64,000 nucleotides of DNA, from contig BPJI01000001.1 of assembly GCA_026004535.1 (NCBI GenBank), positions 324,523-388,522 of the forward strand. The letters run 5' to 3'. Under the pieces are notes generated by a model that searched no databases, was not told where the DNA came from, and was given only the letters and a program-made list of their open reading frames with translations. The stretch's first letter is position 1. The number at the start of each line of letters is the position of its first letter. The position numbers and the translations under genes were made by a program. Below are positions 6,821 through 27,819 of this stretch, piece after piece. The stretch is from Candidatus Parcubacteria bacterium (lineage in GTDB: Bacteria; Patescibacteriota; Minisyncoccia; UBA6257; HR35).

Positions 6821-6831
6821 CTAAATTAAAG

Positions 6832-9325: not shown

Positions 9326-9655
9326 TTATTTTAATCTTTTTGCTATTTCTAAATGTGTTTCTAATTCAGCTCCCGAAGCATAAGCAATTCTTAAAAATTG
9401 AATAAAATCTTTTCTTGTTCTTCGCGATCTTCCTTCAGCTATATTGGCCGGGATAGAAACAGCTGCTCTTTTAATTTGACTTACCAATCCATATGTTTCT
9501 TCTTTGGGGAAATATTTGGTTAATTCATAAATTTCCATAACTAATTCAATGGCTTTTTGCCAGACAAGCAGATCTTTATAAGATAGAATTTTTTTATTAC
9601 CAGAGCTTTTTTCATATAATAATTTTACAATATAATTAACCTGACAGCTGACCAC
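9326..9655 (-). CDS. four-helix-bundle protein ('23S rRNA intervening-sequence protein' family), copy 1
   Basis: ILSYKDLLVWQKAIELVMEIYELTKYFPKEETYGLVSQIKRAAVSIPANIAEGRSRRTRKDFIQFLRIAYASGAELETHLEIAKRL. Paralogue of 28995..29378. The N-terminus differs by a 2-nt indel, so there is a possible start or frameshift issue. Confidence 0.6.
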   Translation of the reverse strand: MVSCQVNYIVKLLYEKSSGNKKILSYKDLLVWQKAIELVMEIYELTKYFPKEETYGLVSQIKRAAVSIPANIAEGRSRRTRKDFIQFLRIAYASGAELETHLEIAKRLK

Positions 9656-9825: not shown

Positions 9826-9854
9826 TTGACAAAATAAAATAGTTAGGATATAAT
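9826..9854 (+). promoter_or_regulatory. sigma70-like promoter (TTGACA-17-TATAAT), identical to those at 6753/6792
   Basis: TTGACAaaataaaatagttaggaTATAAT. Confidence 0.55.
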
Positions 9855-9865
9855 CTAAATTAAAG

Positions 9866-12454
9866 ATGAACAAAAAAATACTTTTATTTACTTTAGTTTT
9901 AGGAGGTTTATTGCTCAGTTTTTTCTTTCTCTCTTTCTTTAAATCTACTTCTGCTCAAGTTTGTCTTCCTCTTAATGGTTATCTTGTTTGGCCAGGAACA
10001 TGGGAATCAGGCAGAATTCCTATGGCTTCAACACAACAATATACCTTATCAAGCTCTCCTTTTTATGTTTCTGGCAATAATGTTGGTTTAGGAACAACCA
10101 ATCCTGTCTATACTTTTCAAGTTAATGGAGATATTTCAGGAACAAGACTTTGTATTGGTAGTGATTGTCGTAATGTTTGGCCTGGTGGAGGAATTGCTGG
10201 TTCTGGTTCAGCTGGTCAAGTAGCTTTTTGGACAGGAACATCAAATATTTCAGGTGACAATGCTCTTTTTTGGGACAATATTAATAAAAGATTAGGAATT
10301 GGAACAATATCACCTCAGACATCTTTGCATGTTGCTGGTAATATCACTGCTAATACTTTTTTAGGTACAATCAATGCAGCTAATATTTCTTCAGGACAAT
10401 TTGGAGCAAATACAGGTGGAGGGAATTATAGTTTTCCTGGCAACGTCGGCATCGGGACGACGAATCCGACTGGAAAGCTACACGTCTATAATGGAAGTAC
10501 AGAATTAATGAAAGTTGTATCTGATGTGGATGTAGTTGGCATCGTGGTAGGACCAGCTATTGGTGGAAGACATTTAATAATTAATGATATTGCTCAAGCA
10601 AGATGGGCATTTGCAACTGGATATTATGATTTATCTATTCAAAATGATTATGGTGGAAGTTGGAATACTAGAATGATAATAACAGAAGACGGCAACGTCG
10701 GCATCGGGACGACGGCGCCCGGGGCGAAGTTGGATGTTGCTGGAAATATAAGCATTAGTGGTGTAGCTGATCTGGGTTTGGATGCAGGTGATGTAGCTGG
10801 CATAGTACCTTGGTATAGAGATATTTTTGCTTTCAAGACCCCAACTAACTTTGAATATTGGGATGGCACATCGTGGGTAGCATTTACTCCTACAAATCCT
10901 CAAGGAATGACTGCATGGGGAGCTGGATCTACAATCATACCGGCAGCAAATAAAGATAAGTTCAGGTTTATAATAGATACTGGTAATAGCGTTGGGTTAA
11001 GGGCAAACTTTCTTGTAGTTAGGGCTAGTGATTGTTGCCCGGGAAGTACTTATAAGGTTGAAGTTGAAGGTAGTAACGATCTAAGCACATGGAGTGGTGT
11101 TTTAACAAGTGGAAGCGGTTTTATGGGAGGCGCTCCAGACGCCCCAACAGTAATACCATTTTCAGGGGGCAACTATAGATATGCTAGGATAACCTTTACC
11201 AAACTTTCAGGTACAAGCACAAATGCATTTAGTATTTATGAATTGCATTTATTTAACAATTGGTCACCAGCTTATGCCAATCTTCCAATAAAATGGGATA
11301 CTAATGGCAACGTCGGCATCGGGACGACGGCGCCTTCTTATAAATTACATGTTCAAGGGGGAGATATTTATGCTTCCTCTTATGTAATAGGAGGGTTAGG
11401 ATTATGTATTGGGTATGATTGTCGAACTTCATGGCCACAAGGATTAACTGGAAGTGGAAGCTCTAACGCAATTGCTGTTTGGACAGGAAGTACAAGTTTG
11501 GGATCATCTATTATTTCTCAATCAGCTGGTAGTGTTAATATAGGTGGATCACTTAGTGTTTCAGGTTCTATTTCAGGTAACAGCGTTAGTGTTTCAGGTT
11601 CTGTTTCAGGTAACAGTGTTAGTGGTAATACATTATGTATTGGGTCTGATTGTCGAACTTCATGGCCACAAGGATTAACTGGGGGTGGAAGCTCTAACGC
11701 AATTGCTGTTTGGACAGGAAGTACAAGTTTGGGATCATCTATTATTTCTCAATCAGCTGGTAGTGTTAATATAGGTGGATCACTTAGTGTTTCAGGTAGT
11801 GGTATTTATACTTCAGGATCTGTTAGTGCATCGGGCGCTGTTAGTGGCAGTATGTTATGTATTGGGTCTGATTGTCGAACTTCATGGCCATCAGGATCAG
11901 GAGGATTAACTGGAAGTGGAAGCTCTACTGCAATTGCTGTTTGGACAGGAAGTACAAGTTTGGGATCATCTATTATTTCTCAATCAGCTGGTAGTGTTAA
12001 TATAGGTGGATCACTTAGTGTTTCAGGTTCTATTTCAGGTAACAGCGTTAGTGTTTCAGGTTCTGTTTCAGGTAACAGTGTTAGTGGTAATACATTATGT
12101 ATTGGGTCTGATTGTCGAACTTCATGGCCATCAGGATCAGGAGGATTAACTGGAAGTGGAAGCTCTAGTGCAATTGCTGTTTGGACAGGAAGTACAAGTT
12201 TGGGATCATCTATTATTTCTCAATCAGCTGGTAGTGTTAATATAAATGGGTCCCTTAGTGTTTCAAATTCTATTTCAGGTGGATCTATATGTATTGGATC
12301 TTCTTGCCGAAGTTCATGGCCCGTAGGATGTAGTTGGCAGGGTGTTAGTTGTAGTAATTATATTTATTTTAGTAACGGCAACGCTAGAGTGTGTATAGAG
12401 TGTCTTAATGGTGTTGTTACTAGTTTTTATATGGAGGGGGGAAGTCTGCCGTAG
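9866..12454 (+). CDS. large exported surface protein, paralogue of 6832 with an identical first about 190 aa; Ser/Gly-rich tandem repeats and a Cys-rich C-terminus
   Basis: The first about 570 nt are identical to 6832. Three copies of the GC-rich motif GGCAACGTCGGCATCGGGACGAC. Four to five tandem copies of about 234 bp (LCIGSDCRTSWP…SLSVSGSISGNSVSVSG). Ends …FYMEGGSLP*, with a frameshifted repeat of the tail downstream. Confidence 0.7.
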   Translation: MNKKILLFTLVLGGLLLSFFFLSFFKSTSAQVCLPLNGYLVWPGTWESGRIPMASTQQYTLSSSPFYVSGNNVGLGTTNPVYTFQVNGDISGTRLCIGSDCRNVWPGGGIAGSGSAGQVAFWTGTSNISGDNALFWDNINKRLGIGTISPQTSLHVAGNITANTFLGTINAANISSGQFGANTGGGNYSFPGNVGIGTTNPTGKLHVYNGSTELMKVVSDVDVVGIVVGPAIGGRHLIINDIAQARWAFATGYYDLSIQNDYGGSWNTRMIITEDGNVGIGTTAPGAKLDVAGNISISGVADLGLDAGDVAGIVPWYRDIFAFKTPTNFEYWDGTSWVAFTPTNPQGMTAWGAGSTIIPAANKDKFRFIIDTGNSVGLRANFLVVRASDCCPGSTYKVEVEGSNDLSTWSGVLTSGSGFMGGAPDAPTVIPFSGGNYRYARITFTKLSGTSTNAFSIYELHLFNNWSPAYANLPIKWDTNGNVGIGTTAPSYKLHVQGGDIYASSYVIGGLGLCIGYDCRTSWPQGLTGSGSSNAIAVWTGSTSLGSSIISQSAGSVNIGGSLSVSGSISGNSVSVSGSVSGNSVSGNTLCIGSDCRTSWPQGLTGGGSSNAIAVWTGSTSLGSSIISQSAGSVNIGGSLSVSGSGIYTSGSVSASGAVSGSMLCIGSDCRTSWPSGSGGLTGSGSSTAIAVWTGSTSLGSSIISQSAGSVNIGGSLSVSGSISGNSVSVSGSVSGNSVSGNTLCIGSDCRTSWPSGSGGLTGSGSSSAIAVWTGSTSLGSSIISQSAGSVNINGSLSVSNSISGGSICIGSSCRSSWPVGCSWQGVSCSNYIYFSNGNARVCIECLNGVVTSFYMEGGSLP
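11395..12330. repeat. about 234-bp near-identical tandem repeats (x about 4.5) inside the 9866 gene
   Basis: ttatgtattgggtctgattgtcgaacttcatggcca… recurs at about 11400, 11637, 11866, 12100 and 12290. Confidence 0.8.
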
Positions 12455-12862
12455 GATGTAATTGGTATGGTGATCTGTGTAGTGTTGATCTTCATATTGA
12501 TACTAATCCTAATGGTCCCGGTGGTGGTTTTAATATTAGAACATGTTTAGTTTGTAACCTTGGTCAAATTACGGATATTTTTATGGAGGGGGGAAGTGAA
12601 AATTAATATTTAAATAAATTATTAAAATCATAAAAAATTTATATTTATAAAAAATCGCGATCTTTCTTTATTGTTTATAAGTTTCAAAAAATTTTAAAAC
12701 AGCAATTTAATTAATTCTTTTTTATAAGATAAATTTTAATATTTTATTGTGATTTTTAAACAAATTTTCGGATTATTGGTTTTGTATATTATAATTATTT
12801 TTGTGAAAAATTTTTATTATTATTTTTTTGTTATTTATTATAATTTTGTTTTTTAGGTTAAA

Positions 12863-13297
12863 ATGAAAGCTTTTACTTTAACCGAAGTTTTAATTGTTTT
12901 TATTATTATTGGTTTTATTATTGGTTTTTCTTCTTATATTCATTCAAAATTTTCTCGAAGCACCTTAATAATTGATGAATCAGCCAGTTTAGTTGTTAAT
13001 GTTTTAAATTTAGCCAGACAGAAAGCAATTATTGGTGAAGAAAATGCTAATTGGGGAGTTTGGTTGATTAATACTTCAACTCAAGATTATTTTTATTTAT
13101 TTAGAGGAACAACGAGTAATTTAAAAGAAAGATATGAACTGCCTCAACAAGTGAGTTTTTTTGATTTTAGTGATAGGACAATAATTTTTCAAAAATTAAC
13201 AGGTGAAACAATCTCAACCACAATTAAGATTGGCTTTTCGCCAAGTTTTTATAAATTAATTAGGGTTTCAACTTCGGGGAGTATTATTGTTGAATAA
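12863..13297 (+). CDS. type IV pilin / pseudopilin (prepilin-type N-terminal cleavage-methylation domain)
   Basis: MKAFTLTEVLIVFIIIGFIIG: class III signal peptide with Glu at the fifth position of the presumed mature N-terminus (FTLTE). Confidence 0.7.
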   Translation: MKAFTLTEVLIVFIIIGFIIGFSSYIHSKFSRSTLIIDESASLVVNVLNLARQKAIIGEENANWGVWLINTSTQDYFYLFRGTTSNLKERYELPQQVSFFDFSDRTIIFQKLTGETISTTIKIGFSPSFYKLIRVSTSGSIIVE

Positions 13298-13299
13298 AT

Positions 13300-13660
13300 C
13301 GCTGAGAGCATTATTTTACCCGGATAAATACCGGATTATTTTACCCGGATAACCAACCGGATAATGTTTACCCGGATGAATACCGGATATTAAAATATCT
13401 ACCCGGATAGTCAACCTGATAGATCACCCGGATTATTACTGTATAAATCTGGTTTAAATCCGGGTAGTTATATCAGGTTAATATCCGGGGGATTATATCT
13501 GATTTAAATCCAGGTAACTTATCCGGTCATAATCCGGGTATTTGTATCCGCTTTGGATCAGGGTAGCTTATCCGGTTTAAATCCGGGTGCTATTATCCGG
13601 TTAATATCCGGGTAATTATATTTTCTCCTGCTGTCCGCGGTGAATAATTCTTCCGTGTTA
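13300..13660. repeat. CCGGAT-type periodic palindromic element (about 21-bp phasing), about 360 bp
   Basis: Left half is …tacccggataaataccggattattttacccggataacc…. Right half carries the reverse complements (…atccgggta…atccggt…). Right terminus is CTGCTGTCCGCGGT. Confidence 0.7.
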
Positions 13661-13671
13661 TAATTTTAATT

Positions 13672-14307
13672 ATGTTTTATTTACAAAAGGTTTCCCAATT
13701 TTTGCAATATGACATTTATTTTTTTATTTCTCTTTTCTTTTTAGTTATCACCACAATTTTAAAATTTAAGACGTACGACGTCTTAAAATTGATTAGGATA
13801 TTGATGGTAGTAACGATTTTAGTCTTTATTTTATGGTCAGGCTTTTTAAGTTATAAACAATATTTGGTTTGGAAAGATCACCCTTTATCTAAATATCTTT
13901 TGCCCCCTTATCAAGAAATAAATTATTATCTAAATTATGCCTATTTTCATTTTTGGCGAGATTTTTTTTATCGTTTAATTGGTGTTTTGATTATTTTTTT
14001 ACTGATGAAATTTATAAGTTTTGTTTTTAAAAGAGATGTTTTTTATGAAGAAGAAAAAATTTTTGTTCCTTATCTTTCTTTATTTTTCTTTTTTCCTTAC
14101 AATCTAATGTTTTTCTTTTTAGGCCTTTTTATGTTAAACTTAATAATAGTAATTTCAGCTTTCAGGGGTCAGGGATCAGGTGTCAAGTTTCAGGTGTCAG
14201 AGACGAGGTTTTCTTTTAAAGATTATTGGATTTGGCTGGCTTGGTTGATATTAATTCTAGCACCACTAATTTTTAATAATTATAAGTTTTTACAATATAA
14301 ACCTTAA
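13672..14307 (+). CDS. hypothetical polytopic membrane protein (in the pilus gene cluster)
   Basis: 211 aa with several hydrophobic helices. Carries an in-frame palindromic repeat at 13767-13785. The C-terminus reads through a GGGTCAGG-type periodic repeat. Confidence 0.45.
   Translation: MFYLQKVSQFLQYDIYFFISLFFLVITTILKFKTYDVLKLIRILMVVTILVFILWSGFLSYKQYLVWKDHPLSKYLLPPYQEINYYLNYAYFHFWRDFFYRLIGVLIIFLLMKFISFVFKRDVFYEEEKIFVPYLSLFFFFPYNLMFFFLGLFMLNLIIVISAFRGQGSGVKFQVSETRFSFKDYWIWLAWLILILAPLIFNNYKFLQYKP
13767..13785. repeat. palindromic hairpin repeat TAAGACGTACGACGTCTTA inside a CDS
   Basis: Exact copy, translated in-frame (…FKTYDVLKL…). Confidence 0.7.
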
Positions 14308-16004
14308 TGATTTTACCAGAAGAGGAAATAAAAAATATTTTAATAAAAAGAGGGTTGATTGATGAAACTGTTTGGGAAGAAGCAAAAAAAGATGCCGAGA
14401 AATTAAATTTAACGACTATTGAAATTCTAATTAATCGTAAGATCATTGACCTAGAATTTTTTTACAACGTTTTAGCCGAAGAACTAAAAGTCCAACGAGC
14501 TCCACTTAAAGGAGTAAATATTCAGCCATCTGTTTTAGCTTTGGTTCCTGAGAAGATTGCCTTTGAAAAAAAACTAATCCCTTTCGCTTTAGAGAATAAT
14601 ATTTTAAAAGTTGCTATGGTGAATCCTCTTGATATCGAGACAATTAATATTTTAGAGGAAATCGCTAGTCATCAAATAGAGCCTTATCTAGCCACACCTC
14701 AAGAAATCCAATATGCTCTAGTTAATTATCAAAAACTCTATAAGGAAGAATATGAAAGATTGCTTAAGTCAGAAATTCCTCAGGTTACTACTTTAGCAAC
14801 TGAAACCAATGTTGTTCGTTTAGTTGATAATATTTTGGGTTACGCAATTAGTACTAATGCTTCAGATATTCATATTGAAGCCTTGGAAGAAGAAACTCTA
14901 ATTCGTTTTCGAATTGATGGTATTTTAAGAGAGATGATGAAATTGCCTAAAAGTTTGTTAGATCCGATTATTGCTAGAATTAAGGTTTTAAGTAATTTGC
15001 CTTTAGATGAACATTTTCGACCTTTAGATGGAAGATTTAAAGCTAAGGTTGGTGATTTTGAATTTGATATGAGGGTAGCAATTATGCCAACAATTTATGG
15101 CGAGAAGGCTGTTTTAAGGGTTTTGGCTGGGGCAATCAAGCCAACATCTTTAGAAGAATTGGGGGTAAATGAAGAAATTGAAAAAATAATTATGGCAGCA
15201 ATCAGAAAAACTTTCGGGATGATTTTGGTTACTGGTCCGACCGGAAGTGGTAAAACAACAACTTTATATACTATTATCAATATCTTAAATAATCCAGGAG
15301 TTAATATAGTTACGATTGAAGATCCAGTTGAATACGCCATTCCAAGAGTTAATCAAACCCAGGTTAATTTAAAAGTTGATTTGAATTTTGCCACTGCTTT
15401 AAGAGCATTTTTAAGGCAGGACCCAGATATTATAATGGTTGGCGAAATTAGAGATAATGAAACTGCTGAAGTTGCGGCTAATGCTGCTCTAACTGGTCAT
15501 TTGGTTCTTTCGACTTTGCACACCAATGATGCACCAACTGCTGTCCCGAGATTGGTTGAATTAGGGGTACTTCCTTATTTAGTTGCTGATAGTGTTATTT
15601 TGACAATGGCTCAAAGATTAGTCAGAAAAATTTGTCTTAATTGCATAGTTTCTGAAGAAATAACTCCAGCTCAAAAGCAAATAATTTTAGAGCAATTAAG
15701 ATACTTAAAAATTCCTGAAGAAGAAATTAGAGCTTACGAAGAAAGATTGCCCCAGTTTATTTATCGAGGCAAGGGTTGTTCAATTTGTGGCAATACTGGT
15801 TATGTAGGTCGAACTGGTATATTTGAAGCAATGATGATGAACGATGAATTAAAATATATGATTGCCAGCAGAGAATTAAATTCAGAAAAAATAAAACAAA
15901 TTGCCAGAAAGTCTGGTTATCGAACAATGTTTGAAGATGCTTTAGATAAAATTTCTGTCGGTATAACAACAATTGAGGAAGCATTAAGAGTTATTAGGGA
16001 ATAA
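14307..16004 (+). CDS. pilB: type IV pilus assembly ATPase (GspE/PilB family)
   Basis: N-terminal GSPII_E_N-like region, Walker A VTGPTGSGKTTTLYTII, motifs …MVGEIRDNETA… and the C-terminal CxxC…CxxC. Confidence 0.9.
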   Translation: MILPEEEIKNILIKRGLIDETVWEEAKKDAEKLNLTTIEILINRKIIDLEFFYNVLAEELKVQRAPLKGVNIQPSVLALVPEKIAFEKKLIPFALENNILKVAMVNPLDIETINILEEIASHQIEPYLATPQEIQYALVNYQKLYKEEYERLLKSEIPQVTTLATETNVVRLVDNILGYAISTNASDIHIEALEEETLIRFRIDGILREMMKLPKSLLDPIIARIKVLSNLPLDEHFRPLDGRFKAKVGDFEFDMRVAIMPTIYGEKAVLRVLAGAIKPTSLEELGVNEEIEKIIMAAIRKTFGMILVTGPTGSGKTTTLYTIINILNNPGVNIVTIEDPVEYAIPRVNQTQVNLKVDLNFATALRAFLRQDPDIIMVGEIRDNETAEVAANAALTGHLVLSTLHTNDAPTAVPRLVELGVLPYLVADSVILTMAQRLVRKICLNCIVSEEITPAQKQIILEQLRYLKIPEEEIRAYEERLPQFIYRGKGCSICGNTGYVGRTGIFEAMMMNDELKYMIASRELNSEKIKQIARKSGYRTMFEDALDKISVGITTIEEALRVIRE

Positions 16005-16013
16005 GAGATTAAA

Positions 16014-17261
16014 ATGACTGTTTATCATTATAAAGCTTATGATTATAAAGGTAAGTTACATACTGGTAATTTATTTGTTCCATCCGAAGAAGAAGCAATT
16101 GCTTTTTTGCTGAGAAATAATTTGACACCAATTGAAGTTAAATTAGTGCCACAAAGTCTGTTTAGGCAGTTTTTATTAAAATTATTTTTTCGTATAACTT
16201 TTTCTCAAAAATTATATTTACTCAGAAGCTTATATTTAATTTTAAAATCAGGGCTTACCTTAGATAAGGGTTTAGAGGTTTTAATCAGAGAAGCAAAGGG
16301 TGGAGTCAAAGATTTTCTTTTTTATTTAGATTACAATTTGCAAAGAGGTGAGCCAGTTTATCGAACTTTTGCTGCTTTCCCTCAATTTTTTTCTCAAGTT
16401 GAAGTTGAGACGATTAGGGCTGGTGAGATTTCTGGTAATTTAGTTGGTAACTTAGAGAAATTGGCCGAAAATTTAGAAAGGCAAAGAGAGATTAAAAATG
16501 AAATAATTTCTAATATTATCTATCCAGCCATTGTTTTGGGTTTAGCTTTTGGTGTTATTATTCTTTTGATCACCTTTGTTATGCCACGAATTAGTGTTTT
16601 ACTTACTCAATTAACATCAAAACCTCCTTTGCTTACCCGCATTTTAATTGGCGCCAGTACCTTTGTTAATAATAATCTTTCTTTAGTTACTACAATATTG
16701 ATTTTAATTATTTTGACTTTTATTTTTGTGGTTTCGCTCAAAAAAACTCGAAAAATATTATTTAAATTTTTAATAAGACTTCCGGTTCTATCTAATCTTT
16801 ATTATGCCTTAGCTTTGAGTCAATCATTTTTTATTTTAAGATCTTTATTGAGTTCTGGTTTAAATCTAACTCAATCTTTAAAATTGGCTGCTGATGCTAG
16901 TTTTCATCCATATATTCGCGAAAGTTTTTATGATGTTGAAAAAGAATTAAGGGCAGGGAAAAAATTAGGTGATGCCCTTTTGTTACAGGAAAAAATTCCT
17001 GTTTTTGTCAGTAGTATTTTAAGTGTTGCTTCAGAAGCTGGATTTTTGGAAGAAACATTAAGAATAATGGAAAATTATTATCTAGAAGAATTTCGAGCAA
17101 CAGTTAGAAACTTTTTGAATTTACTTCAGCCAGCACTTTTAATTTTTGTCGGCGGTATTGTTGGTTTTGTGGCGATTGCTGTTTTGGTTCCTATTTATCA
17201 ACAAATTTCTCAACAGCTTCAGTTTCAAGAAGGTCGCGGTCAAATACCCGGAGAATTATAA
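16014..17261 (+). CDS. pilC: type IV pilus inner-membrane platform protein (GspF/PilC family)
   Basis: 415 aa with two repeated GspF-like domains and three TM segments; canonical position after pilB. Confidence 0.85.
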   Translation: MTVYHYKAYDYKGKLHTGNLFVPSEEEAIAFLLRNNLTPIEVKLVPQSLFRQFLLKLFFRITFSQKLYLLRSLYLILKSGLTLDKGLEVLIREAKGGVKDFLFYLDYNLQRGEPVYRTFAAFPQFFSQVEVETIRAGEISGNLVGNLEKLAENLERQREIKNEIISNIIYPAIVLGLAFGVIILLITFVMPRISVLLTQLTSKPPLLTRILIGASTFVNNNLSLVTTILILIILTFIFVVSLKKTRKILFKFLIRLPVLSNLYYALALSQSFFILRSLLSSGLNLTQSLKLAADASFHPYIRESFYDVEKELRAGKKLGDALLLQEKIPVFVSSILSVASEAGFLEETLRIMENYYLEEFRATVRNFLNLLQPALLIFVGGIVGFVAIAVLVPIYQQISQQLQFQEGRGQIPGEL

Positions 17262-18670
17262 TGAATTTTTATCCTGAAAAAGTTCCAGCCAAAACTAATA
17301 TTGATTTTTTTATCAATAATTTTTCTAAATTTTTAAAAAATAAAAAAAGGGTTTGGCTAATTGGTCGAATAATGGCTGTCCGTGAGCATGGAAAAATAAC
17401 TTTCTTAAAACTTCAGGATTTTTATGGTTCAATTCAGATTATTTTAAAAGAAAATGCCGTTAAAGATTATCAAGGGTTTTTGGATTTAGTTAAAATTGGC
17501 GATTTTTTTGCCTTTTATGGTTACGCTTTTTTGCCTCGGACTAAAGAGAAAAGTTTGTTAGCGGAAAAGTGGCTTTTAGCAGCAAAATCAATTAAAAATT
17601 TTCCTAAAGAATACTACAAAGTCAGAGACGAAGAACTTTTGGTGCGCGAACCATATTTAAAAACAATTTTTTATCCTGAAGAAAAAGAAACTTTTTATTT
17701 AAGATTTAAATTGATTGAGGAATTAAGAAAAATTTTATGGAGCGAAGGATTTTTAGAAGTTGAAACTCCAATTTTACAAACTCATTATGGTGGTGCTTTG
17801 GCTCGTCCGTTTGTGACTTATTTAGAGGCAATGAAAGAGCCATTGTATTTAAGAATTGCTCCAGAGATTTATTTGAAGAAAATGTTAGTTGGTGGTTTTG
17901 AGAAAATTTTTGAAATTGGCAAAGATTTCAGAAATGAAGGGATCGATAAAGAACATAATCCTGAATTTACAATGATGGAACTTTATTGGGCTTATCAAGA
18001 TAGGGAAGGCTTGATGAAGTTTACTGAAAGAATTATTAAAGAGCTAGTGAAAAGATATAAAAGTTTAAAAGGTGAAAAGGGTTTGAAAATTATTTTTCAA
18101 GATAAAGTAATTGATTTGAGTAAAAAATGGCAAGCTTATAAATACATTGAGCTTTTAAAAAAGGAAACTGGTTTAGATTATTTTGGAAATAGTTTAGATG
18201 ACTTTTTGAAATTAGCCAAGGAGAAAAATATTGAATTTAATCCCAAAATAATTACTAAAGGTAAAATTGTTGATGAAATTTTTAAGAAATTAATTCGACC
18301 AAAATTAATTCAGCCAACATTTTTAATTGATCATCCTAAAGAGATTTCTCCTTTGGCTAAATCACACCCAGACGATCCGAGGTTGACTTTAAGATTTCAA
18401 ATTTATTTAGCTGGTTTTGAAATTGCTAACGCTTTTGCCGAATTAAATGATCCTGTTGATCAAAAACAAAGATTTGAAGAATCAGTTAAGGAATTAAAAA
18501 AAGGAGATGTTGAAGCTCACCCCTATGATGAGACTTTTATTTCTGCTTTAGAATATGGTATGCCTCCAACTGCTGGTTTAGGCATAGGCATTGACAGACT
18601 TTTGACAATAATTTTAAATAAAAGATCAATTCAGGATATAATCTATTTTCCATTCGTCAAGAGAAAATAA
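17261..18670 (+). CDS. lysS: lysyl-tRNA synthetase (class II)
   Basis: FRNEGIDKEHNPEFTMMELYWAY, FEIANAFAELNDPVDQ and GMPPTAGLGIGIDRL. Confidence 0.85.
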   Translation: MNFYPEKVPAKTNIDFFINNFSKFLKNKKRVWLIGRIMAVREHGKITFLKLQDFYGSIQIILKENAVKDYQGFLDLVKIGDFFAFYGYAFLPRTKEKSLLAEKWLLAAKSIKNFPKEYYKVRDEELLVREPYLKTIFYPEEKETFYLRFKLIEELRKILWSEGFLEVETPILQTHYGGALARPFVTYLEAMKEPLYLRIAPEIYLKKMLVGGFEKIFEIGKDFRNEGIDKEHNPEFTMMELYWAYQDREGLMKFTERIIKELVKRYKSLKGEKGLKIIFQDKVIDLSKKWQAYKYIELLKKETGLDYFGNSLDDFLKLAKEKNIEFNPKIITKGKIVDEIFKKLIRPKLIQPTFLIDHPKEISPLAKSHPDDPRLTLRFQIYLAGFEIANAFAELNDPVDQKQRFEESVKELKKGDVEAHPYDETFISALEYGMPPTAGLGIGIDRLLTIILNKRSIQDIIYFPFVKRK

Positions 18671-18700
18671 AAGTAAAAATTATAATAAAATTAAAATTAG

Positions 18701-19996: not shown

Positions 19997-20006
19997 CGAG
20001 TTAATA

Positions 20007-21512
20007 ATGAATAAATTTTATTTATATCTTAACAAAGAGGATGAATTGGGAGAAATAATTGAAAAGATTAAAAGAGTGAAAGATAAAGAGATTATTTTAG
20101 TTGTTCCGGAAAAAACAAAAGCCTTATCTCATTCTACTAATTTTGAACTTTTTAAAAAAGAGATTCAAAGTTTAGATAAAAAAATTTATTTTAATACTGA
20201 TGACGAAAAGATAAAAAATTTAGCTAGACAAAATAAATTTCCAATCTTTTTAGAAGAAACAGAAGAAAGAATTTTTGATATTAAGCCACCTAAAAAAAAG
20301 AAAGAGTCCGAAGGAGAAATAACTTTTCAACCAACGAAGCCTAAATTAATATTTAATCTCAAAAAATTTTTCATCTATTTTTTAACATTATTTAGCTTAT
20401 CGATTTTAGGTTTTGTTGGTTTTCGACTTTTTCAAACACAAGCAGAAATAACGATTGAAACTCAAAAAACTCTTTATGATTTAAATGAAGTCATAACCTT
20501 AAAACAAGACCAGACTTTGCCGGATTATGAAAATAAGATTTTGCCTGCTAAATATTTTGAAGTAGATCTAATTAAAACAGAAACAATCAAAACAACTGGT
20601 CGAGTTTTTACTGATGAAAAACCTTATTTAAAAGTTATTTTTCTAAATTATTTAGAAAGAGAAATCCCATTAGTTGCTGGAACTAGGCTTAGTTTTGAGG
20701 GTAATCTCTTTAAAACAACAGAAAGAATAACTATTCCTTCGGCTAAAGATAATCAGCCTGGACAAAAATCTGTTTTAGCTTTACCAGTTAACTTAAAAGA
20801 TGAGACTTTGAAAATTAATAAGGGCGCTGATTTGAAAATTGTTGCCTGGGAAGAAAGTAGAGTAAAAACAGAGGATGGTAGTTTATTTATTGATGTTATT
20901 AAAGCTAAAGTCGAAGAAGATTATGATTATGGTGCTGTTACTAAAATTGGTTCAGTTGCGCCTCAGGATATAACTAATGTTAAATTAGCCCTAGAGGATT
21001 CATTGAAAAAAGCAGTTGCTAGTGATTTAGCCTTAAAAAATCCAGAGACATTTTATCTTTTCGAGCCAGATTTAGTTAACATAGAAATTACTAACATTTC
21101 ACATAATGTTGGAGATAAAACTGATCAGATTTCGGCAACTGGTAAAGCGACTTATGAGACAATGAAGACAAACAAAAAAGACTTTGATGATTTTGTTAAA
21201 AATTTGATTAATCAAGAAATTTTACGTCAAGAAAAAAAATTAATCATCAGTCAGTTAAGGATTGATAAAATTGAACTTTTAGATTTTGATGCTAAGAGAA
21301 AAATAATGACAATAGGTGTTAAGGGGCAAGCGATTTTGGTTCCTGATCTTGTTCCTGAGACTCTTAAAACAGCACTTCAAGGAAAAACAATTGAGGAAAC
21401 GAGGGATTATTTTAAGATTCCTGGTGTTGATAAAGTGACAATTAAAATTTTTCCTAATTGGAAAGAAAAATTACCCTCAGATCCTCAAAAAATTAAGATT
21501 GTCATAAAATAG
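20007..21512 (+). CDS. hypothetical protein (501 aa, one internal TM segment)
   Basis: Long uninterrupted ORF with ordinary codon usage. No motif recognised. Confidence 0.5.
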   Translation: MNKFYLYLNKEDELGEIIEKIKRVKDKEIILVVPEKTKALSHSTNFELFKKEIQSLDKKIYFNTDDEKIKNLARQNKFPIFLEETEERIFDIKPPKKKKESEGEITFQPTKPKLIFNLKKFFIYFLTLFSLSILGFVGFRLFQTQAEITIETQKTLYDLNEVITLKQDQTLPDYENKILPAKYFEVDLIKTETIKTTGRVFTDEKPYLKVIFLNYLEREIPLVAGTRLSFEGNLFKTTERITIPSAKDNQPGQKSVLALPVNLKDETLKINKGADLKIVAWEESRVKTEDGSLFIDVIKAKVEEDYDYGAVTKIGSVAPQDITNVKLALEDSLKKAVASDLALKNPETFYLFEPDLVNIEITNISHNVGDKTDQISATGKATYETMKTNKKDFDDFVKNLINQEILRQEKKLIISQLRIDKIELLDFDAKRKIMTIGVKGQAILVPDLVPETLKTALQGKTIEETRDYFKIPGVDKVTIKIFPNWKEKLPSDPQKIKIVIK

Positions 21513-21593
21513 AAATTGTGCTATAATTATAACAGCTTCATAGCTAACCAGCTTCGTAGCTTCTTTAGAATTTTTGGTCGGAGTTAGAAAAGA

Positions 21594-21929
21594 ATGAAAA
21601 AAATGGAAAAGCCTGTTTATCAAGTTGTTTTAGAAAACATTTTGTCAAGCTTAGTTAATAATCCTCAAGAAGTAAAGGTCCAAAGAATTATTGATGAGAT
21701 GGGCGTTCTTTTAAAAATTAAACTCCATCCTCAAGATATGGGCCTTGTTATTGGTCGTAATGGTGAAACAATTAAGGCTGTTAAAACAATTATTAAAGCG
21801 ATTGGAACCAAAAATCACGCTCGCGTTAATATCAAAATTGAAGAACCAACTCCTCTTGATCGAGCCGTCGCCCAAAAAACTCTTAAAAGTGGAGAAATAA
21901 TTGAAGAGCTCAAAAAAGAAATTTCATGA
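21594..21929 (+). CDS. KH-domain RNA-binding protein (KhpA/YlqC-like)
   Basis: …DMGLVIGRNGETIKAVKTIIKAI…; GxxG loop of a type II KH domain. Confidence 0.65.
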   Translation: MKKMEKPVYQVVLENILSSLVNNPQEVKVQRIIDEMGVLLKIKLHPQDMGLVIGRNGETIKAVKTIIKAIGTKNHARVNIKIEEPTPLDRAVAQKTLKSGEIIEELKKEIS

Positions 21930-23893
21930 CAGATTATCGAGCTGAGCATATTCAAGTTTTAGAAGGCATTGAAGCGGTCAGAAAAAGACCAGGAATGTAC
22001 ATTGGTGGTACAGGTCTTGATGGATTGCATCATTTAATTTGGGAAATTGTTGCTAATAGTGTTGATGAAGCTTTGGCCGGTTATGCTAAAAATATCGAGG
22101 TAGTAATTGAAAGCGAAAATCGAATTAGGATCAGCGATGATGGTCGAGGTATTCCTGTTGAGATTCACCCTAAAACAAAAAAATCTGCCCTAGAGACAGT
22201 CTTAACCATACTTCACGCTGGCGGAAAATTTGATCAGAAAATTTATAAATCAGCTGGCGGTCTTCATGGTGTTGGCGTTAGTGTTGTTAATGCTTTATCA
22301 AAATATTTAAAAGCAATTGTTAAAAGAGATGGCTATGTTTGGACGCAAGAATATAAACAGGGAAGAGCAATAACTGAACTCAAAAAAGGAAAACCAAGCA
22401 AAGAAACAGGAACAACAATAATTTTTGAACCTGACCCACAGATCTTTCCTGAAATTAAATGGGAAACAAAAAGAATTTTAGATTATCTTCGTCATCAAGC
22501 CTATTTAACCCCGGGTTTGAGAATTAATTTTATTGATGAAAGAAATAACTTTCGTTATAGTTTTTATTTTGAAAAGGGCTTACAATCATTTTTTGAACAT
22601 TTAATTTTAAATAAAAATCCAGTAATTCAAGATTATATTTACTTTAATGAAAAAGGAGAAAATTTTCAATTAGAAGTGGCTTTTACCTATTTAGAAAATA
22701 ATGAGATCAATGAATACTTTTTTACTAATAATATCTTAAACGCTGAGGGAGGGACTCACCAATTGGGTTTTCGTTCGGCGTTGGTGAAAATATTTAATAA
22801 AGTTGGTAGCGAGTTGGGATTGATTAAAGAAACAAGTGGTCTAACAATTAATAGTGAAGATATTCGTGGTGGTTTGATTGTGATTTTATCTTTGAAAATT
22901 CCTGAGCCTCAATTTGAAGGTCAAACAAAAGCTAAACTTGGCAATCCTGAAGCAAAAAACATAGTCGAAGATGTAGTGAGTAGAAATTTAGAAGAATATT
23001 TACATAAGAATCCTGATAAAGCAAAAACAATTTTAAATCGTGTACTTTTAAACACTCAGGCGAGAAAAGCTGCTAAAGCTGCTCGTGAGACAATTTTTAA
23101 AAAAAGAATTCAAGCTGGTCTTACCTTATCTGGTAAATTAGCAGATTGTTCTTCTCGTGATCCAGAAAAAAGAGAGTTATTTGTGGTTGAGGGTGATTCT
23201 GCTGGTGGTTCAGCTAAACAAGGCAGAAATAGAATTTTTCAAGCGGTTTTGCCCTTACGAGGAAAAATTTTGAATGTTGAAAAAGCTAATTTGGAAAAAA
23301 TTTTAAAATCTCAAGAAATAAAAAATTTAATTATTGCTTTGGGCACAGGTTTTGGTAAAGATTTTAATTTAGAAGGTTTAAGATATTCAAAAATAATTAT
23401 AGCCACTGATGCTGATTCTGATGGTAATCATATACGAACATTGCTTTTAACTTTATTTTATAGATATATGAGGCCATTAATTGAGCAAGGTTTTATTTAT
23501 ATTGCCCAACCACCATTATATAAAATTCAAGTTGGCAAAGAAATTTACTATGCTTATTCTGATGCTGAAAAAGACAAAATAATCGCAGACTTGACGCAGA
23601 CCAAACGCAGAACTTCGCAGACCAAACGCAAACAATTACAAACCTTAGAAACTCAGGCTGAAAATAAATCTATTAATATTGATGTTCAAAGATATAAAGG
23701 TTTAGGTGAAATGAATCCTGAAGAACTTTGGGAGACAACCTTAAATCCTGAAAAAAGGGTCTTAAAGAAAGTGACAATTGAAGATGCTGAGGAGGCGGAT
23801 AGATTATTTACAATTTTGATGGGTCAGGAAGTCGAACCACGAAAATTATTTATTGAAACTTATGCTCAGGAAGTTAAGAATCTTGATATATGA
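21926..23893 (+). CDS. gyrB: DNA gyrase subunit B
   Basis: GHKL ATPase (…EVVIESENRIRISDDGRGIPV…), TOPRIM …VEGDSAGGSAKQGR…, …LPLRGKILNVEKA…, C-terminal …KNLDI. Contains an in-frame repeat insertion at about 23584-23640. Confidence 0.9.
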   Translation: MTDYRAEHIQVLEGIEAVRKRPGMYIGGTGLDGLHHLIWEIVANSVDEALAGYAKNIEVVIESENRIRISDDGRGIPVEIHPKTKKSALETVLTILHAGGKFDQKIYKSAGGLHGVGVSVVNALSKYLKAIVKRDGYVWTQEYKQGRAITELKKGKPSKETGTTIIFEPDPQIFPEIKWETKRILDYLRHQAYLTPGLRINFIDERNNFRYSFYFEKGLQSFFEHLILNKNPVIQDYIYFNEKGENFQLEVAFTYLENNEINEYFFTNNILNAEGGTHQLGFRSALVKIFNKVGSELGLIKETSGLTINSEDIRGGLIVILSLKIPEPQFEGQTKAKLGNPEAKNIVEDVVSRNLEEYLHKNPDKAKTILNRVLLNTQARKAAKAARETIFKKRIQAGLTLSGKLADCSSRDPEKRELFVVEGDSAGGSAKQGRNRIFQAVLPLRGKILNVEKANLEKILKSQEIKNLIIALGTGFGKDFNLEGLRYSKIIIATDADSDGNHIRTLLLTLFYRYMRPLIEQGFIYIAQPPLYKIQVGKEIYYAYSDAEKDKIIADLTQTKRRTSQTKRKQLQTLETQAENKSINIDVQRYKGLGEMNPEELWETTLNPEKRVLKKVTIEDAEEADRLFTILMGQEVEPRKLFIETYAQEVKNLDI

Positions 23894-24425
23894 AAATTGG
23901 TTTGCGTTTGTTTTTTCGATCTTGATCACTTTTTTATTTTTTAAAAATATTTATCTAGCTTCATTTCTTTATTTTTTAGTTTTAACTTATTTTCTTGGTT
24001 CCTTGCCTCAAAGTTTATTTTTCAGCTTTGTCTTTCTACCTTTGATTTTTATCTTTAATCAACAAATTTCTTTGCCGTTAATTTCAACTTTAATTTTATT
24101 TCTGCTTATTTTTGGCTCGTTTAAAAAAACCAAATTTTTACCTTGGTTAATTGTAATTCTAATAACGCTTTTTCTTTTTTATTTTAATTTTTTAGAAAAA
24201 ATTAATTTACCCTTAACAATCTTTCTTTTTGTTCTGATTACTTTTTATTTTTCTCTTGTCTTTTTGCGCCTAGATGTTTTTACGGCCCTTATTTCTGCCC
24301 TCATTCTTTTAGAAGCTTCATTTTTGTTGCAATTTTTACCGGCATCTTTTTTTGTTAGAATTTTTATTATTTTACTTTTCTTGCTTCTGCTTTTAAAATT
24401 TGATATAATTAAAAAACTCCAATGA
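23853..24425 (+). CDS. hypothetical polytopic membrane protein
   Basis: 190-aa ORF of very hydrophobic, Phe/Leu-rich helices. Overlaps the gyrB 3' end by 41 nt. Confidence 0.4.
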
Positions 24426-25012
24426 CAAATTTAGTACCAATAGTAATTGAAAAAACACAATATGGCGAGAGAGCCTATGATATTTATTCAAGACTTTTGA
24501 AAGAAAGAATTATTTTCTTAGGCACTCCAATTAATGACATTGTTGCCAATAGTATTATTGCTCAGCTTTTATATTTGGAGCATGAAGATCCAGGTAAAGA
24601 TATTCATTTTTACATTCATAGTCCTGGCGGTGAACTGCCGGCTGCTTTAGCGATTTATGATACAATGCAATTTATTAAATGTGAGATTCGAACAATTGGT
24701 ATTGGTTTAGTTGCTTCGGCTGCCTCAATTTTGTTAGCCGCCGGAACAAAGGGAAAAAGATTTGCTTTACCTAATACAGAGATTTTGCTTCATCAGGTAA
24801 TGGCTGGTCCAATTGGTGGTCAGGCAGTTGAAATTGAAATTGCTGCTAAGGAAATTGTTAAGTTAAAAGAAAAAGTTAATAAAATTTTAGCTGAGCATAC
24901 TGGTCAACCTTTAGAAAGAATTGAAAAAGATACAGATAGGGATTTTTGGCTTTCAGCTGAAGAAGCAAAAAATTATGGTTTGATTGATAAAATTTTAGTT
25001 AAGCGGGCGTAG
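24422..25012 (+). CDS. clpP: ATP-dependent Clp protease proteolytic subunit
   Basis: …[26 protein letters not shown]…HSPGG…[16 protein letters not shown]…. Confidence 0.9.
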
Positions 25013-25077
25013 TTCAGCCAGGTTAGAACGCTGCCCTGTCACGGCAGAGGTCGCCGGTTCAAATCCGGTCGCCCGCG
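25003..25077 (+). tRNA. tRNA-Asp (anticodon GTC)
   Basis: GCGGGCG…CTGTCAC…GCCGGTTCAAATCCGGTCGCCCGC; overlaps the clpP stop codon by about 10 nt. Confidence 0.85.
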
Positions 25078-25758
25078 CTAAATAATTCTTTTTGATTGTT
25101 TTTTCCTCCACTCATCAATTAATTTATGATTTCCGGAAAGCAAAACTTTCGGCACTCTTAAAATCATTTCTTTTTTCTTGAATCTTGAATCATGTATCTT
25201 GATTCTTACTTCCTCCGGTCTTGTATAAACAGAATAAGAATACAATCCCTTGTCCCATCTTTTTTCTTCTAATGATAATGGATGATGCAATACTCCAGGT
25301 AAATGGCGGGAAACAGCATCAACAATGACCATTGCTGGCAATTCACCTCCAGTTAAAACATATTTGCCAATTGAAATTTTTAAATCAACAAATTTTTCAA
25401 TTCGAGCATCAATGCCTTCATAATGACCGCAAATAATAATCAATTGTTTTTCTTGGGCTAATTTCCGAGCTAAGTTTTGATTAAAAATTTCCCCAGCTGG
25501 ATGGGTTAAAATAATTTTTCTTTTCTTAGTTTTAGTTGCTTTTTTAGCTGCTTCTAAAGCTTTATAAACGGGTTCAAATTTAATCACCATTCCTGGCCCA
25601 CCACCATAGGGCTTATCATCCAGTCCATGAGGTTGGGAAAATTTTTTTAAATCAAAAAAGCTTATCTTGATAAGCTTTTTTTCTTGTGCCTTTTTTAAAA
25701 TTGATGTTTCTAAATAAGAGAAAGCTTCAGGAAAAAGAGTAATAATATCAAAAAACAT
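25078..25758 (-). CDS. trmD: tRNA (guanine37-N1)-methyltransferase
   Basis: MFFDIITLFPEAF…GGGPGMV… SPOUT core. Start taken at the internal Met; the longer ORF would overlap a tRNA-derived repeat. Confidence 0.85.
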   Translation of the reverse strand: MFFDIITLFPEAFSYLETSILKKAQEKKLIKISFFDLKKFSQPHGLDDKPYGGGPGMVIKFEPVYKALEAAKKATKTKKRKIILTHPAGEIFNQNLARKLAQEKQLIIICGHYEGIDARIEKFVDLKISIGKYVLTGGELPAMVIVDAVSRHLPGVLHHPLSLEEKRWDKGLYSYSVYTRPEEVRIKIHDSRFKKKEMILRVPKVLLSGNHKLIDEWRKKQSKRII

Positions 25759-25762
25759 CTTC

Positions 25763-25785
25763 TGCCGGGAGTGGGATTCGAATAC
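25763..25785. repeat. partial duplicate of the tRNA-Met 3' end (TGCCGGGAGTGGGATTCGAA)
   Basis: 20-nt exact match to 25888-25907, lying about 100 bp beyond the 3' end of the minus-strand tRNA-Met. Confidence 0.5.
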
Positions 25786-25886
25786 GGTAAACTCCACGCT
25801 TGTGGTAAGACATCGTTCTCTCGCTCTCGTTAATATTAAGTGCTATTTGTTCGCTGGTTTGTAGTGGGTTCTCATCCCACTCCACT

Positions 25887-25959
25887 TGCCGGGAGTGGGA
25901 TTCGAACCCACGACCTGGCGCTTATGAGACGCCCGCTCTAACCCCTGAGCTATCCCGGC
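25887..25959 (-). tRNA. tRNA-Met (anticodon CAT; elongator-type, could be tRNA-Ile2/lysidine)
   Basis: Reverse complement GCCGGGATAGCTCAGGGGTTAGAGCGGGCGTCTCATAAGCGCCAGGTCGTGGGTTCGAATCCCACTCCCGGCA. Confidence 0.85.
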
Positions 25960-26199
25960 TATTATATCTAATTATAACTTAAAAGTTTTTTAGTTAAATA
26001 TTTTCAAGTTAAAGAGCTCACAAGAACATAAAGTAAGACATACGATGTCTTACTATTAATAGATTAGTAAATTATAAATTATATTTTATAATAATAATAA
26101 TTTTATAATAATAATAAATTAAATAATAATGAATCAGGAAAAGTCGAGGTTAATAAATTTAATAAATATTTCGAACATAAGATGTCCGAATATTAAAAG

Positions 26200-27819
26200 A
26201 TGAAACTTCATAATTTTTACTTCCTACTTATTACTTCTTTTTTCGTCGCTATTCTTTTTTCTTCTTACTTTATAATTTTTCAACCATCTTATGCTTGGAT
26301 AAATCCATCCCAAAATCCACCCTTAGGAGGCGGAGTATTACAAACAGACACTTCTGGTTTAAAAATTGTCACCACAACTCAGATCACTTCAGGAAATTTT
26401 ACAGTCAACACCGGCAACGTCGGCATCGGGACGGCAAACCCAAATAGTAAACTTCAAATTGATGATCAATCTGCTTCTCATTATATTGGTCGTTATGATC
26501 CAACTTGTTGTGGATCTTCACAAATCCCAGCGAATCAATTTAGAGGTTTTACAGTATTTTGGAATACAGATTTAGCAATGTTTGGGTTAAGAGATTATGG
26601 AGGCGACAGAAAAGATGTGGTAATAAATAATGAACAAGGAGGGGATAATATTAGATTTCAAATCGCAGGTTCTGATGTAATGTTTATAAGAGGAAGTGAC
26701 GGCAACGTCGGCATCGGGACGACAGCACCAGGGGCAACTGCACGTAGCTTCAGGACTAATTGAAACTGGCACTAGAAGCGTAAAACAGTAATTAAATGTA
26801 GATTCTTGCGGAACAACAAGAGTTACAAGCGTTCTAATGGAATCTGGGCGCTGATTTAGTGGTGGATCGGGATGAATGGTTTATTGGTCGCAAGATAGAG
26901 ATGGCGGAGAAGCAAGCTTAGTTTAGAATGTCGGAACGATGCCAATGATCATATAGCTCTAATGCCTCCGGCAACGTCGGCATCGGGACGACGCATCCGT
27001 GAACAAAGTTGGATGTAGTAGGCTCGATCTAGAACTTAGCAGCTAGTCTCACTCTCTCAGCTATGGTTTGATTGGACAAACTCAAAGCTACGATTTACTT
27101 CGCTCAAGCAGATTACAATCCTGAGCAGTATTACTGGGTTGGTAGCTGAGTTAAATCAAATATGGCACAATAGGGTTATCTGGTGCAAGGAAGCTCTAGT
27201 GGACTTTTGACTTATAGACAGTGGTCTTCAGGAAAGATTGGACTCGGCAGGTGGATACATCAGTTAGCGTTCATGGTTCAAGTGGATAACTTATCTGGCA
27301 TGGATATAGCCAACTACTGGTTCTTGGAGGGAATTGGGCAAGATCTCTTCGATACAGCAAATGTAGGTAAAACATCTAGTTTCTGCAGAATAGATGGAAC
27401 TGGCGATTCCTATATTATGCGGCAACGTCGGCATCGGGACGACAGCACCAGGGTATAAATTAGATGTTGCTGGAGATGTGCATGGAACAAGTTTTCCTGT
27501 TTCTTCTGATATAAGATTTAAGACTAATCTTGAGAAATTAGATAATGTTTTAGCTAAATTAGAAAATATTAATGCTTATAAATTTGATTGGAATGAGTTG
27601 TATCAGAAATTGGGAAGAAGTGATAATCGCAGACATATTGGAGTAATTGCTCAAGAAATTGAAAAGGAATTTCCTGAATTAGTGAGTGAATGGGAGCAAG
27701 ATGGAGTAAAATATAAAGCAGTTGATTATTCAAGATTGACGGTAGTTTTGCTTGAAGCAATCAAAGAACAGCAAAAACAGATTGAGGAATTAAAAAGACA
27801 GCTTTCAGTTTTCAGGTAG
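26200..27819 (+). pseudogene. degenerate tail-fibre-like surface-protein gene: intact N-terminal fragment (26200-26763), frameshifted/stop-interrupted middle, intact S74-chaperone-domain tail (27394-27819)
   Basis: N-terminal signal plus GNVGIGT motifs. Four more copies of the GGCAACGTCGGCATCGGGACG 21-mer at 26413, 26701, 26970 and 27421. Stops between 26763 and 27394. C-terminus …IGVIAQEIEKEFPELV…YKAVDYSRLTVVLLEAIKEQQKQIEELKRQL. Confidence 0.5.

Follow-up and report, generated by a model that had tools for sequence, protein, structure and literature searches.

Short conserved motifs that part the variable, receptor-binding segments of a protein have been described in phage tail fibres, where, according to the passages on them in PMC12032242 (citing Tetart et al. 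1998 and Trojet et al. 2011), the glycine-rich motifs (GRMs) of gp38 and the distal tail-fibre motifs of T-even phages are proposed recombination hot spots for modular shuffling. As those passages present them, they are the closest DNA-level analogue of a 21-nt motif, GGCAACGTCGGCATCGGGACG, that recurs in the surface-fibre genes of a 64,000-nt stretch (hereafter the window) from a Candidatus Parcubacteria bacterium (assembly GCA_026004535.1, contig BPJI01000001.1, positions 324,523 to 388,522). Like the GRMs described there, the motif is rich in glycine and separates variable modules, and the boundaries of mosaic blocks coincide with it. By the same account, however, GRMs belong to one phage group and gp38 is monomeric, whereas the master version of the motif analyzed here is found in Candidate Phyla Radiation (CPR) bacteria, DPANN archaea, other bins and many viral contigs, lies in chromosomal genes of cellular organisms, and is GC-rich in genomes of 30% GC.

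At the protein level, the architecture is that of the MAT fibres of Bdellovibrio bacteriovorus, the subject of a structural and cell-biological study (Caulton et al. 2024, PMC10769870; PDB 8OND, 8OML, 8OL4). As the paper's account of their architecture has it, MAT members have a signal peptide and a conserved domain at the N-terminus; their trimeric beta-helix modules are intertwined and bear a conserved capping-loop motif, and their tips are diversified, some having an S74 domain and some lacking it. The family is described as mosaic with conserved and diversified ends, which the modularity of one window gene (A2) fits, and both A2 and P0003, a relative of the second fibre locus (locus B), align to the Bdellovibrio fibre Bd2133. 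The MAT consensus V-G-G/N-pi-x-x-P-x-x-x-L is nevertheless offset by one residue from the VGIGTTxPxxKL seen here, and MAT hosts are predators (Bdellovibrio), whereas the hosts here are Parcubacteria. Term searches of the paper's text returned "recombination" in the methods only and neither "shuffl" nor "horizontal", so no nucleotide-level analysis was found in the text thus searched.

Shufflons and multiple-inversion systems (R64 Rci/sfx, p15B Min, Mu Gin) likewise have several 19-26-bp sites inside adhesin coding sequence, which permit exchange of C-terminal segments, a likeness to the present motif. Their sites are inverted and adjacent to a dedicated recombinase, whereas all copies here are direct and no recombinase was found among the scanned open reading frames (ORFs; those of at least 140 aa in the window). 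In Borrelia vlsE/vls (17-bp direct repeats) and Neisseria pilE/pilS, short direct repeats bracket variable cassettes, as here, and the resemblance extends to a GC-rich island in an AT-rich genome and to a non-expressed degenerate copy. Those systems, however, keep a usable silent array and have lineage-specific anchors, whereas the degenerate cassettes here are dissimilar to the expressed genes and the anchor is common to several phyla. What is unusual is that one nucleotide master occurs across domains and persists as a GC island in 30%-GC genomes; neither the peptide nor the DNA string turned up in a full-text literature search. From the sequence comparisons below, we conclude that the 21-mer is probably a conserved short-homology joint for the exchange of cassettes between fibre beta-helix modules.

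Seven identical 21-mers in two fibre loci

The window comes from the chromosome of an AT-rich bacterium and includes housekeeping genes, nine tRNAs and a 16S rRNA gene. An exact scan for GGCAACGTCGGCATCGGGACG found seven matches, all on the + strand, and no further site at one to three mismatches (Table 1). An earlier note made from the letters alone had listed these seven copies, with six starts as found here and the third one nucleotide off (11305 instead of 11306). Every copy is written GGC AAC GTC GGC ATC GGG ACG and encodes GNVGIGT, in agreement with that note as to the GC-rich codons. Its examples of the same peptide in AT-rich codons, by contrast, proved to be variant peptides: GNVGIGM at 7405-7425 and GNIGIGT at 8794-8814, both in gene A1 and each six mismatches from the master, and NNVGLGT at 7042 and 10076. 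Thus, every exact GNVGIGT in the window is written by the GC-rich 21-mer.

Chance and codon bias were both rejected as sources of this identity, as the note had anticipated. None of 100 dinucleotide shuffles of the window gave a match; GC content at third codon positions (GC3) is 0.187 in 26 other window genes and 1.0 in the motif itself; and the probability of this codon string, given the peptide and native codon usage, is 1.7e-7 per copy. Combined with seven exact copies out of seven and no near-misses, this indicates that the identity lies at the DNA level and does not come from codon usage. The flanks are unrelated, with a mean pairwise identity of 0.29 in the 30 nt upstream and 0.44 downstream, and just 3′ of the motif the conserved Pro, Lys, Leu and Val residues are written with synonymous codons that vary from copy to copy (CCG, CCC, CCT, CCA, CCA, CCG and CCA for Pro; CTA, TTG, TTA, CTT, TTG and TTA for Leu). 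Identity extends beyond the 21-mer in two pairs only, over 29 nt (10691/11306) and over 34 nt (26700/27420). The seven motifs are therefore not part of a longer duplicated segment with equally identical flanks, a trivial origin that had been considered for them, and the exact motif with unrelated flanks and non-native codons bears out conservation at the nucleotide level.

Table 1. Positions of the motif copies, the fibre genes and their parts, and the intergenic repeat arrays in the window
Feature	Position	Strand	Description
591-bp block	6792-7382	+	100% identical to 9826-10416; shared upstream region and N-terminal module
Gene A1	6832-9219	+	795 aa; N-terminal module as in A2, DUF2341, seven RCC1 repeats, S74 chaperone domain
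Gene A2	9866-12454	+	ORF, 862 aa; MAT-like putative surface fibre
Motif copy 1	10439-10459	+	Exact; joins shared N-terminal module to cassette 1 of A2
Cassette 1 of A2	10460-10690	+	One beta-helix module (predicted); native-like composition, GC3 0.18
Motif copy 2	10691-10711	+	Exact; identity with copy 3 runs 29 nt (10691-10719)
Cassette 2 of A2	10712-11305	+	GC3 0.28; between 29-nt direct repeats
Motif copy 3	11306-11326	+	Exact; with copy 2 brackets the 615-bp cassette 2
Locus-B gene, 5′ part	26200-26733	+	Joined to 27454-27819 gives intact 299-aa ORF
Motif copy 4	26413-26433	+	Exact; closes locus-B N-terminal block kept at DNA level in syntenic relatives
Motif copy 5	26701-26721	+	Exact; within left 34-nt direct repeat (26700-26733)
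Insert X	26734-27419	+	Two degenerate cassettes around motif copy 6
Cassette X1	26734-26969	+	Degenerate; in insert X
Motif copy 6	26970-26990	+	Exact; in insert X, other reading frame
Cassette X2	26991-27419	+	Degenerate; in insert X
Motif copy 7	27421-27441	+	Exact; within right 34-nt repeat (27420-27453); leads to S74 C-terminal module
Locus-B gene, 3′ part	27454-27819	+	S74 intramolecular-chaperone domain, PF13884, E 5e-18
TTACCCGGAT / ACCGGATA arrays	13300-13625, 28320-28440, 47990-48375, 52670-52830	both	
TTACCCGGAT / ACCGGATA arrays	55435-55545, 56075-56230, 61460-61725, 62795-62875	both	

Gene A2 is laid out as a signal or transmembrane segment, the N-terminal module shared with A1, two motif-bounded cassettes and four tandem repeats of 231-240 nt. 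Its residues 144-297, which comprise cassette 1 and the bracketing motifs, align to a beta-helix domain of Bd2133 (PDB 8OND, E 7e-8), whereas A1 gave no match in PDB; cassette 2 gave a weak F5/8 type C-like signal. The S74 domain (Peptidase_S74, PF13884), recognized in A1 (E 7e-15) and at the C-terminus of locus B, is absent from A2, as it is from non-S74 MAT proteins. These features identify the window genes as coding for putative surface fibres of the S74/MAT type with predicted trimeric beta-helix modules, in which the 21-mer would encode the conserved loop (GNVGIGTTxP) opening each module. Because the motif GNVGIGTTxPxxKLxV is of the MAT capping-loop kind, each segment between motifs is predicted to be one structural module.

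Tandem coding repeats occur in both A genes. Within 7787-8770, A1 has seven 114-nt RCC1 units, of which the central five are 86-100% identical to the reference copy and the two at the edges 62-63%. The four units of A2 lie within 11429-12377, and copies 1 and 3 are 96% identical. As sequences, these repeats are further evidence pointing to recent intragenic duplication.

Locus B contains a fibre gene broken by an insert, which the earlier note had missed. Insert X has 686 nt, a GC content of 0.43-0.44 and stops in every frame, and is flanked by direct repeats of 34 nt, both containing the motif. Removal of the insert together with one repeat (720 nt) restores the 299-aa ORF, whose product is colinear with the intact 273-aa P0003 (46% identity, E 1e-60), itself a match to PDB 8OND, 8OML and 8OL4. 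Within the insert, the context of motif copy 6 reads GNVGIGTTHP*TKLDVVGSI*, with stop codons after the motif. An intact coding cassette on a 49%-GC contig from another metagenome (L368) matches X2 at 74% identity with eight indels, and there the cassette runs in frame into the same motif. The 34-nt repeats, the restored ORF and the coding relative of X2 together indicate that the insert is a decayed foreign-type cassette pair placed at the motif. A self-splicing intron or other noncoding RNA was ruled out for insert X by its homology to coding sequence, by the lack of any Rfam match up to E = 1 and by a fold z-score of −0.31. In other loci, 137 of 141 adjacent exact motif pairs are in frame and open, showing that the disrupted arrangement is peculiar to this window. 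The in-frame spacing claimed for the copies applies to 252, 615, 288 and 720 nt, which are divisible by three, but not to the 269 and 451 nt internal to locus B.

Degenerate cassettes with perfect anchors, 15 kb from intact paralogues carrying the same anchors, could suggest that locus B is a silent-cassette store for antigenic-type variation like that of Borrelia vls or Neisseria pilS, with the 21-mers anchoring gene conversion; GC-rich anchors in an AT-rich genome are a further likeness to vls. We regard this as highly unlikely. Only two cassettes are present in the window, both decayed, with many stops and frameshifts and no DNA similarity to the cassettes of A1 or A2; they interrupt a gene that is intact in relatives, and other loci are without such arrays.

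The whole pattern, including an oddity such as insert X, might also arise from assembly or sequencing, either as a k-mer chimera at the shared 21-mer, 21 being a common minimum k, or through mis-polishing, and all genome matches listed for the motif come from metagenome-assembled genomes (MAGs) or single-cell genomes. To such an artefact we give almost no credence. The protein of ORF 26200-26763 is 100% identical to KatS3mg096_355, encoded on a 556-kb contig of a "Candidatus Parcubacteria" MAG whose name points to the Katase study. KatS3 (Katase hot-spring sediment) was assembled with metaFlye from PacBio HiFi reads with an N50 of 10.5 kb (PMC9671151); reads of this length span both loci, which makes a k-mer chimera unlikely. 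In addition, the combination of AT-rich flank and GC-rich motif recurs in MEGAHIT, SPAdes and IDBA-type assemblies and in a single-cell genome, and a de Bruijn path requires each junction k-mer to be present in the reads.

Distribution of the master sequence and mosaic boundaries

The motif extends far beyond this genome, a further point that had escaped the earlier note. At least 120 genome contigs carry the exact 21-mer, as do at least 120 viral ones. Among the genome matches listed, most are CPR/Patescibacteria or DPANN archaea, and several of the matched contigs measure 370-640 kb; they include the complete chromosome of one member of Paceibacterota and, from archaea, two contigs of about 440-460 kb. 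Further bins are assigned to Gammaproteobacteria, Acidobacteria, Elusimicrobia, Omnitrophica, Planctomycetes and Bdellovibrionales, some of which may be mis-binned. The proposal that the copies arose as a gene-conversion tract from 26200-27819 is thus not sustained, because the sequence did not originate locally but represents the consensus of a master spread over many phyla and viruses. Over about 30 nt, this consensus reads GGCAACGTCGGCATCGGGACGACGAGTCCG.

Much of the statistics is based on the window and on 240 loci that were picked by the exact 21-mer. Together they contain 737 GNVGIGT-coding sites, 390 of them exact and 128, 84 and 46 with one, two and three third-position (synonymous) changes, respectively. 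Transitions (C-to-T and G-to-A) are more frequent than transversions among the listed single-change variants, so the variants look like mutational decay from one master. Most master-type loci have a GC content of 45-50%. Other AT-rich genes (GC3 0.16-0.33) have several copies each at zero to two mismatches. Within any one of the other loci, the copies share a strand. A 15-mer survey of the loci found nothing shared besides extensions of the motif. When the window cassettes were compared with the collected loci by blastn or tblastx, X1 and X2 had no match. Stretches of 24-46 nt matched at the motif-proximal edges of cassette 2 and of the locus-B C-terminal part, and the sole other window match was that of the shared N-terminal module to L065 (71% identity over 144 nt).

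The decay pattern and the base composition are also what would be seen if the motifs had no function and were un-ameliorated leftovers of modules from GC-richer donors, identical merely because they are recent; insert X, with its relative in the 49%-GC contig, is in keeping with such an origin. We nevertheless consider this quite unlikely. Cassette 1 and the N-terminal blocks (GC3 0.14) are native in composition, yet they adjoin perfect motifs, and native cassettes likewise abut perfect motifs in other AT-rich genes. Moreover, recency alone does not account for seven perfect copies out of seven next to randomised synonymous sites.

An unbiased sample of 207 viral sites was gathered with a degenerate pattern. 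One site was exact and 14 were within one mismatch, against 3.8 expected, a count reached by none of 2000 GC-stratified permutations; those versions that occur in several copies all cluster around the master. This sample indicates that master-type genes are a distinct minority class. Codon choice in it is position-specific, with GGC at 46% of first glycines, GGG at 5% there versus 26% at the third glycine, and ACG at 37% versus ACC at 5% for threonine.

Such position-specific choice, even in an unbiased sample, would be expected if the 21-30-mer were kept for a nucleic-acid function of its own, for instance as a protein or small-RNA site or as a translation or co-translational-folding signal, with recombination a by-product. 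In the same sense, the GC island persists in genes of GC3 0.16-0.3 with native adjoining cassettes, and the three copies in and around the decayed insert X are still perfect. We judge a function of this type to be unlikely, because it is difficult to conceive of one trans factor that would act in CPR bacteria, DPANN archaea, proteobacterial bins and viruses alike, because orthologous copies decay freely and because the excess of transitions among the listed single-mismatch variants is as neutral decay predicts; the copies also persist in a pseudogene context, where translation is irrelevant. A hairpin or structured element was rejected separately: DNA folds of the 30-mer and of the window contexts were no better than shuffles (z −1.1 and −0.2), and the motif had no match in Rfam.

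The motif coincides with the boundaries of mosaicism between related loci. When matches of at least 85% identity between loci were compared, 16% of their ends fell within 10 nt of a motif, versus 1.9% for random positions, an eight-fold enrichment. L225 and L239, for example, share a 317-bp cassette that is 98.4% identical, has the motif at both ends and is flanked on either side by unrelated sequence; the pairs L178/L239, L080/L119 and L200/L213 are similar. In the loci syntenic with locus B (trmD, fibre gene, PolX) within the window's own lineage, L359 and L360 keep the N-terminal DNA up to the motif and have unrelated C-terminal modules after it, and the same holds for L358, L363, L364 and L367. 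In these orthologous N-terminal modules, the motif has 0, 1, 2, 2, 4, 4 and 5 mismatches, with synonymous decay towards AT. The position of the copies at module junctions and these mosaic boundaries support the earlier idea of shuffling between N- and C-terminal modules, and suggest that the motif marks the joints at which modules of adhesin-like proteins were swapped. The fibre gene of L360 (4001-6050) also seems split, into a 221-aa ORF with a frameshift-like tail and a separate 369-aa S74 ORF after it; the trmD-to-PolX position may be one that is readily disrupted or rearranged in several lineages.

Candidate mechanisms of cassette exchange

If the 21-mer is a joint for cassette exchange, the local copies of the shared master would act as a movable piece of short homology. 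Through homologous or annealing-type recombination over identical stretches of 21-34 nt, cassettes could be lost, duplicated, gained or traded in frame, whether inside one genome, between genomes or with viruses. New genes would take up only those cassettes whose ends agree with the common version, which would account for the uniformity of the motif across distant hosts; freshly placed cassettes would carry near-perfect ends, to be decayed later by ordinary mutation (birth and decay). In the window, such a process would have left one fibre gene with two motif-bounded cassettes and a second one in which decayed cassettes of foreign type, 720 bp long and bounded by the motif, disrupt the reading frame. 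Direct repeats of 29 nt around cassette 2 and of 34 nt around the insert look like the footprint expected of homology-mediated insertion. The identity at the DNA level, the mosaic boundaries in related loci and the structure of the insertion are seen directly in the sequences; from these patterns we infer the recombination pathway itself, and cassette-level selection as the force that would maintain the motif.

Several observations weigh against exchange as the cause of the conservation. The 591-bp duplication shared by A1 and A2, which gives them an identical N-terminal region of about 184 aa and divergence afterwards, did not use master identity, since the block ends about 22 nt short of the motif and the A1 copy is AT-rich. 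Judging from the decay in orthologues, strong purifying selection does not act on every copy. Any conserved stretch becomes a recombination joint; boundaries at the motif are therefore no proof that its conservation is due to recombination, since the conservation could have another cause and recombination be a by-product. Cassettes beside exact motifs are not clearly higher in GC3 than the remainder of the gene (a weak, non-significant difference), and a close homologue elsewhere was found for 7 of 230 near-exact-ended cassettes versus 1 of 150 others, which is not significant either. Much of the statistics comes from loci that had been chosen for having the exact 21-mer, and the case for rearrangement is built wholly from the comparison of assembled sequences.

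The length of 21-30 nt and the sharp edges of the motif are like those of recombinase or nuclease sites, and multi-site recombination systems within tail-fibre genes are known. The motif could therefore be the target of a sequence-specific enzyme, either a shufflon-, Gin- or Min-like recombinase or a homing-type nuclease whose cutting, followed by copy-repair, homogenises the copies. This, too, is very unlikely. No integrase, resolvase, invertase, transposase, nuclease or reverse transcriptase was found among the scanned window ORFs, so the nearby recombinase genes that the earlier note had advised looking for did not appear. All-against-all clustering of 2034 ORFs from the 240 loci revealed no recurring neighbour, the largest family occurring in 11 loci. 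Copies at each locus share an orientation, with which invertase-type systems would give deletions only, and the 137 of 141 adjacent exact pairs that are in frame and open indicate that the arrays are stable. The site-specific recombinase suggested earlier thus finds no counterpart in these data, the copies being direct rather than inverted.

A diversity-generating retroelement (DGR) was also ruled out, as there was neither a reverse transcriptase among the scanned ORFs nor a pair of template- and variable-repeat-like sequences in the window. Two paralogous PF05635 ("23S rRNA intervening sequence protein") genes, 87% identical over 311 nt, lie on the − strand at 9326-9655, just downstream of A1, and at 28995-29378, about 1.2 kb downstream of locus B. 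This four-helix-bundle family includes the DGR accessory protein Avd; such Avd-like genes alone are not diagnostic of a DGR.

Exchange at a short-homology joint has a wider form, in which one connector of about 21-30 nt across domains would sustain a community-wide exchange of beta-helix adhesin cassettes among CPR bacteria, DPANN archaea, predatory and other bacteria, phages and giant-virus bins. The connector would be kept uniform by cassette-level selection, in a selfish-like spread, or by an undiscovered enzyme, as a homology-based counterpart, for protein modules, of the attC sites of integrons. We regard this wider form as doubtful, though conceivable.

Attachment to host cells is the way of life of ultrasmall CPR bacteria and DPANN archaea, whose host recognition is, to our knowledge, largely unexplained; it is plausible that these fibre genes are host-recognition adhesins. 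A standard DNA joint at which modules could be exchanged in frame, seemingly even between very distant organisms and viruses, would explain how such small genomes diversify their surfaces quickly. The 21-30-mer would also be a simple tag for finding such genes and their exchange partners in metagenomes, and a natural design rule for the engineering of modular fibres.

Other features of the window

A second pair of near-identical blocks lies outside the fibre loci. The segments 37082-37536 and 57824-58278 are 454-bp copies, 99.8% identical, each of which starts a type-IV-pilin-like ORF (N-terminal motif FTLVELLVV) with a stop after 106 aa; the identity runs 134 nt beyond the stop, and the second copy is followed by an ORF with a PA14 domain (58490-58972). 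They look like another family of surface proteins in which the N-terminal block has been homogenised, and they may be frameshifted. A 79-nt repeat (31168-31246 and 31813-31891, 99% identical, 645 nt apart) flanks small ORFs downstream of PolX.

At many intergenic sites, an imperfect repeat of about 12 nt (TTACCCGGAT / ACCGGATA) forms arrays, in both orientations (Table 1). A second intergenic family, of CCACGGATTTACACGGAT-like units, occurs in both orientations at 6230-6326, 38288-38336, 48916-48991 and 63632-63724. TGAAGCT-like 8-nt units form short tandem runs at 31254-31314, 40919-40979 and 57398-57458, two of which lie directly upstream of tRNA genes (tRNA-Lys at 40985 and tRNA-Arg at 57465). 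Finally, a 1232-aa ORF on the − strand (50657-54355) combines a helicase (DEAD/ResIII), a Toprim domain and a type IA topoisomerase, the architecture of reverse gyrase, which fits the 52 °C hot-spring origin of this Parcubacteria genome.

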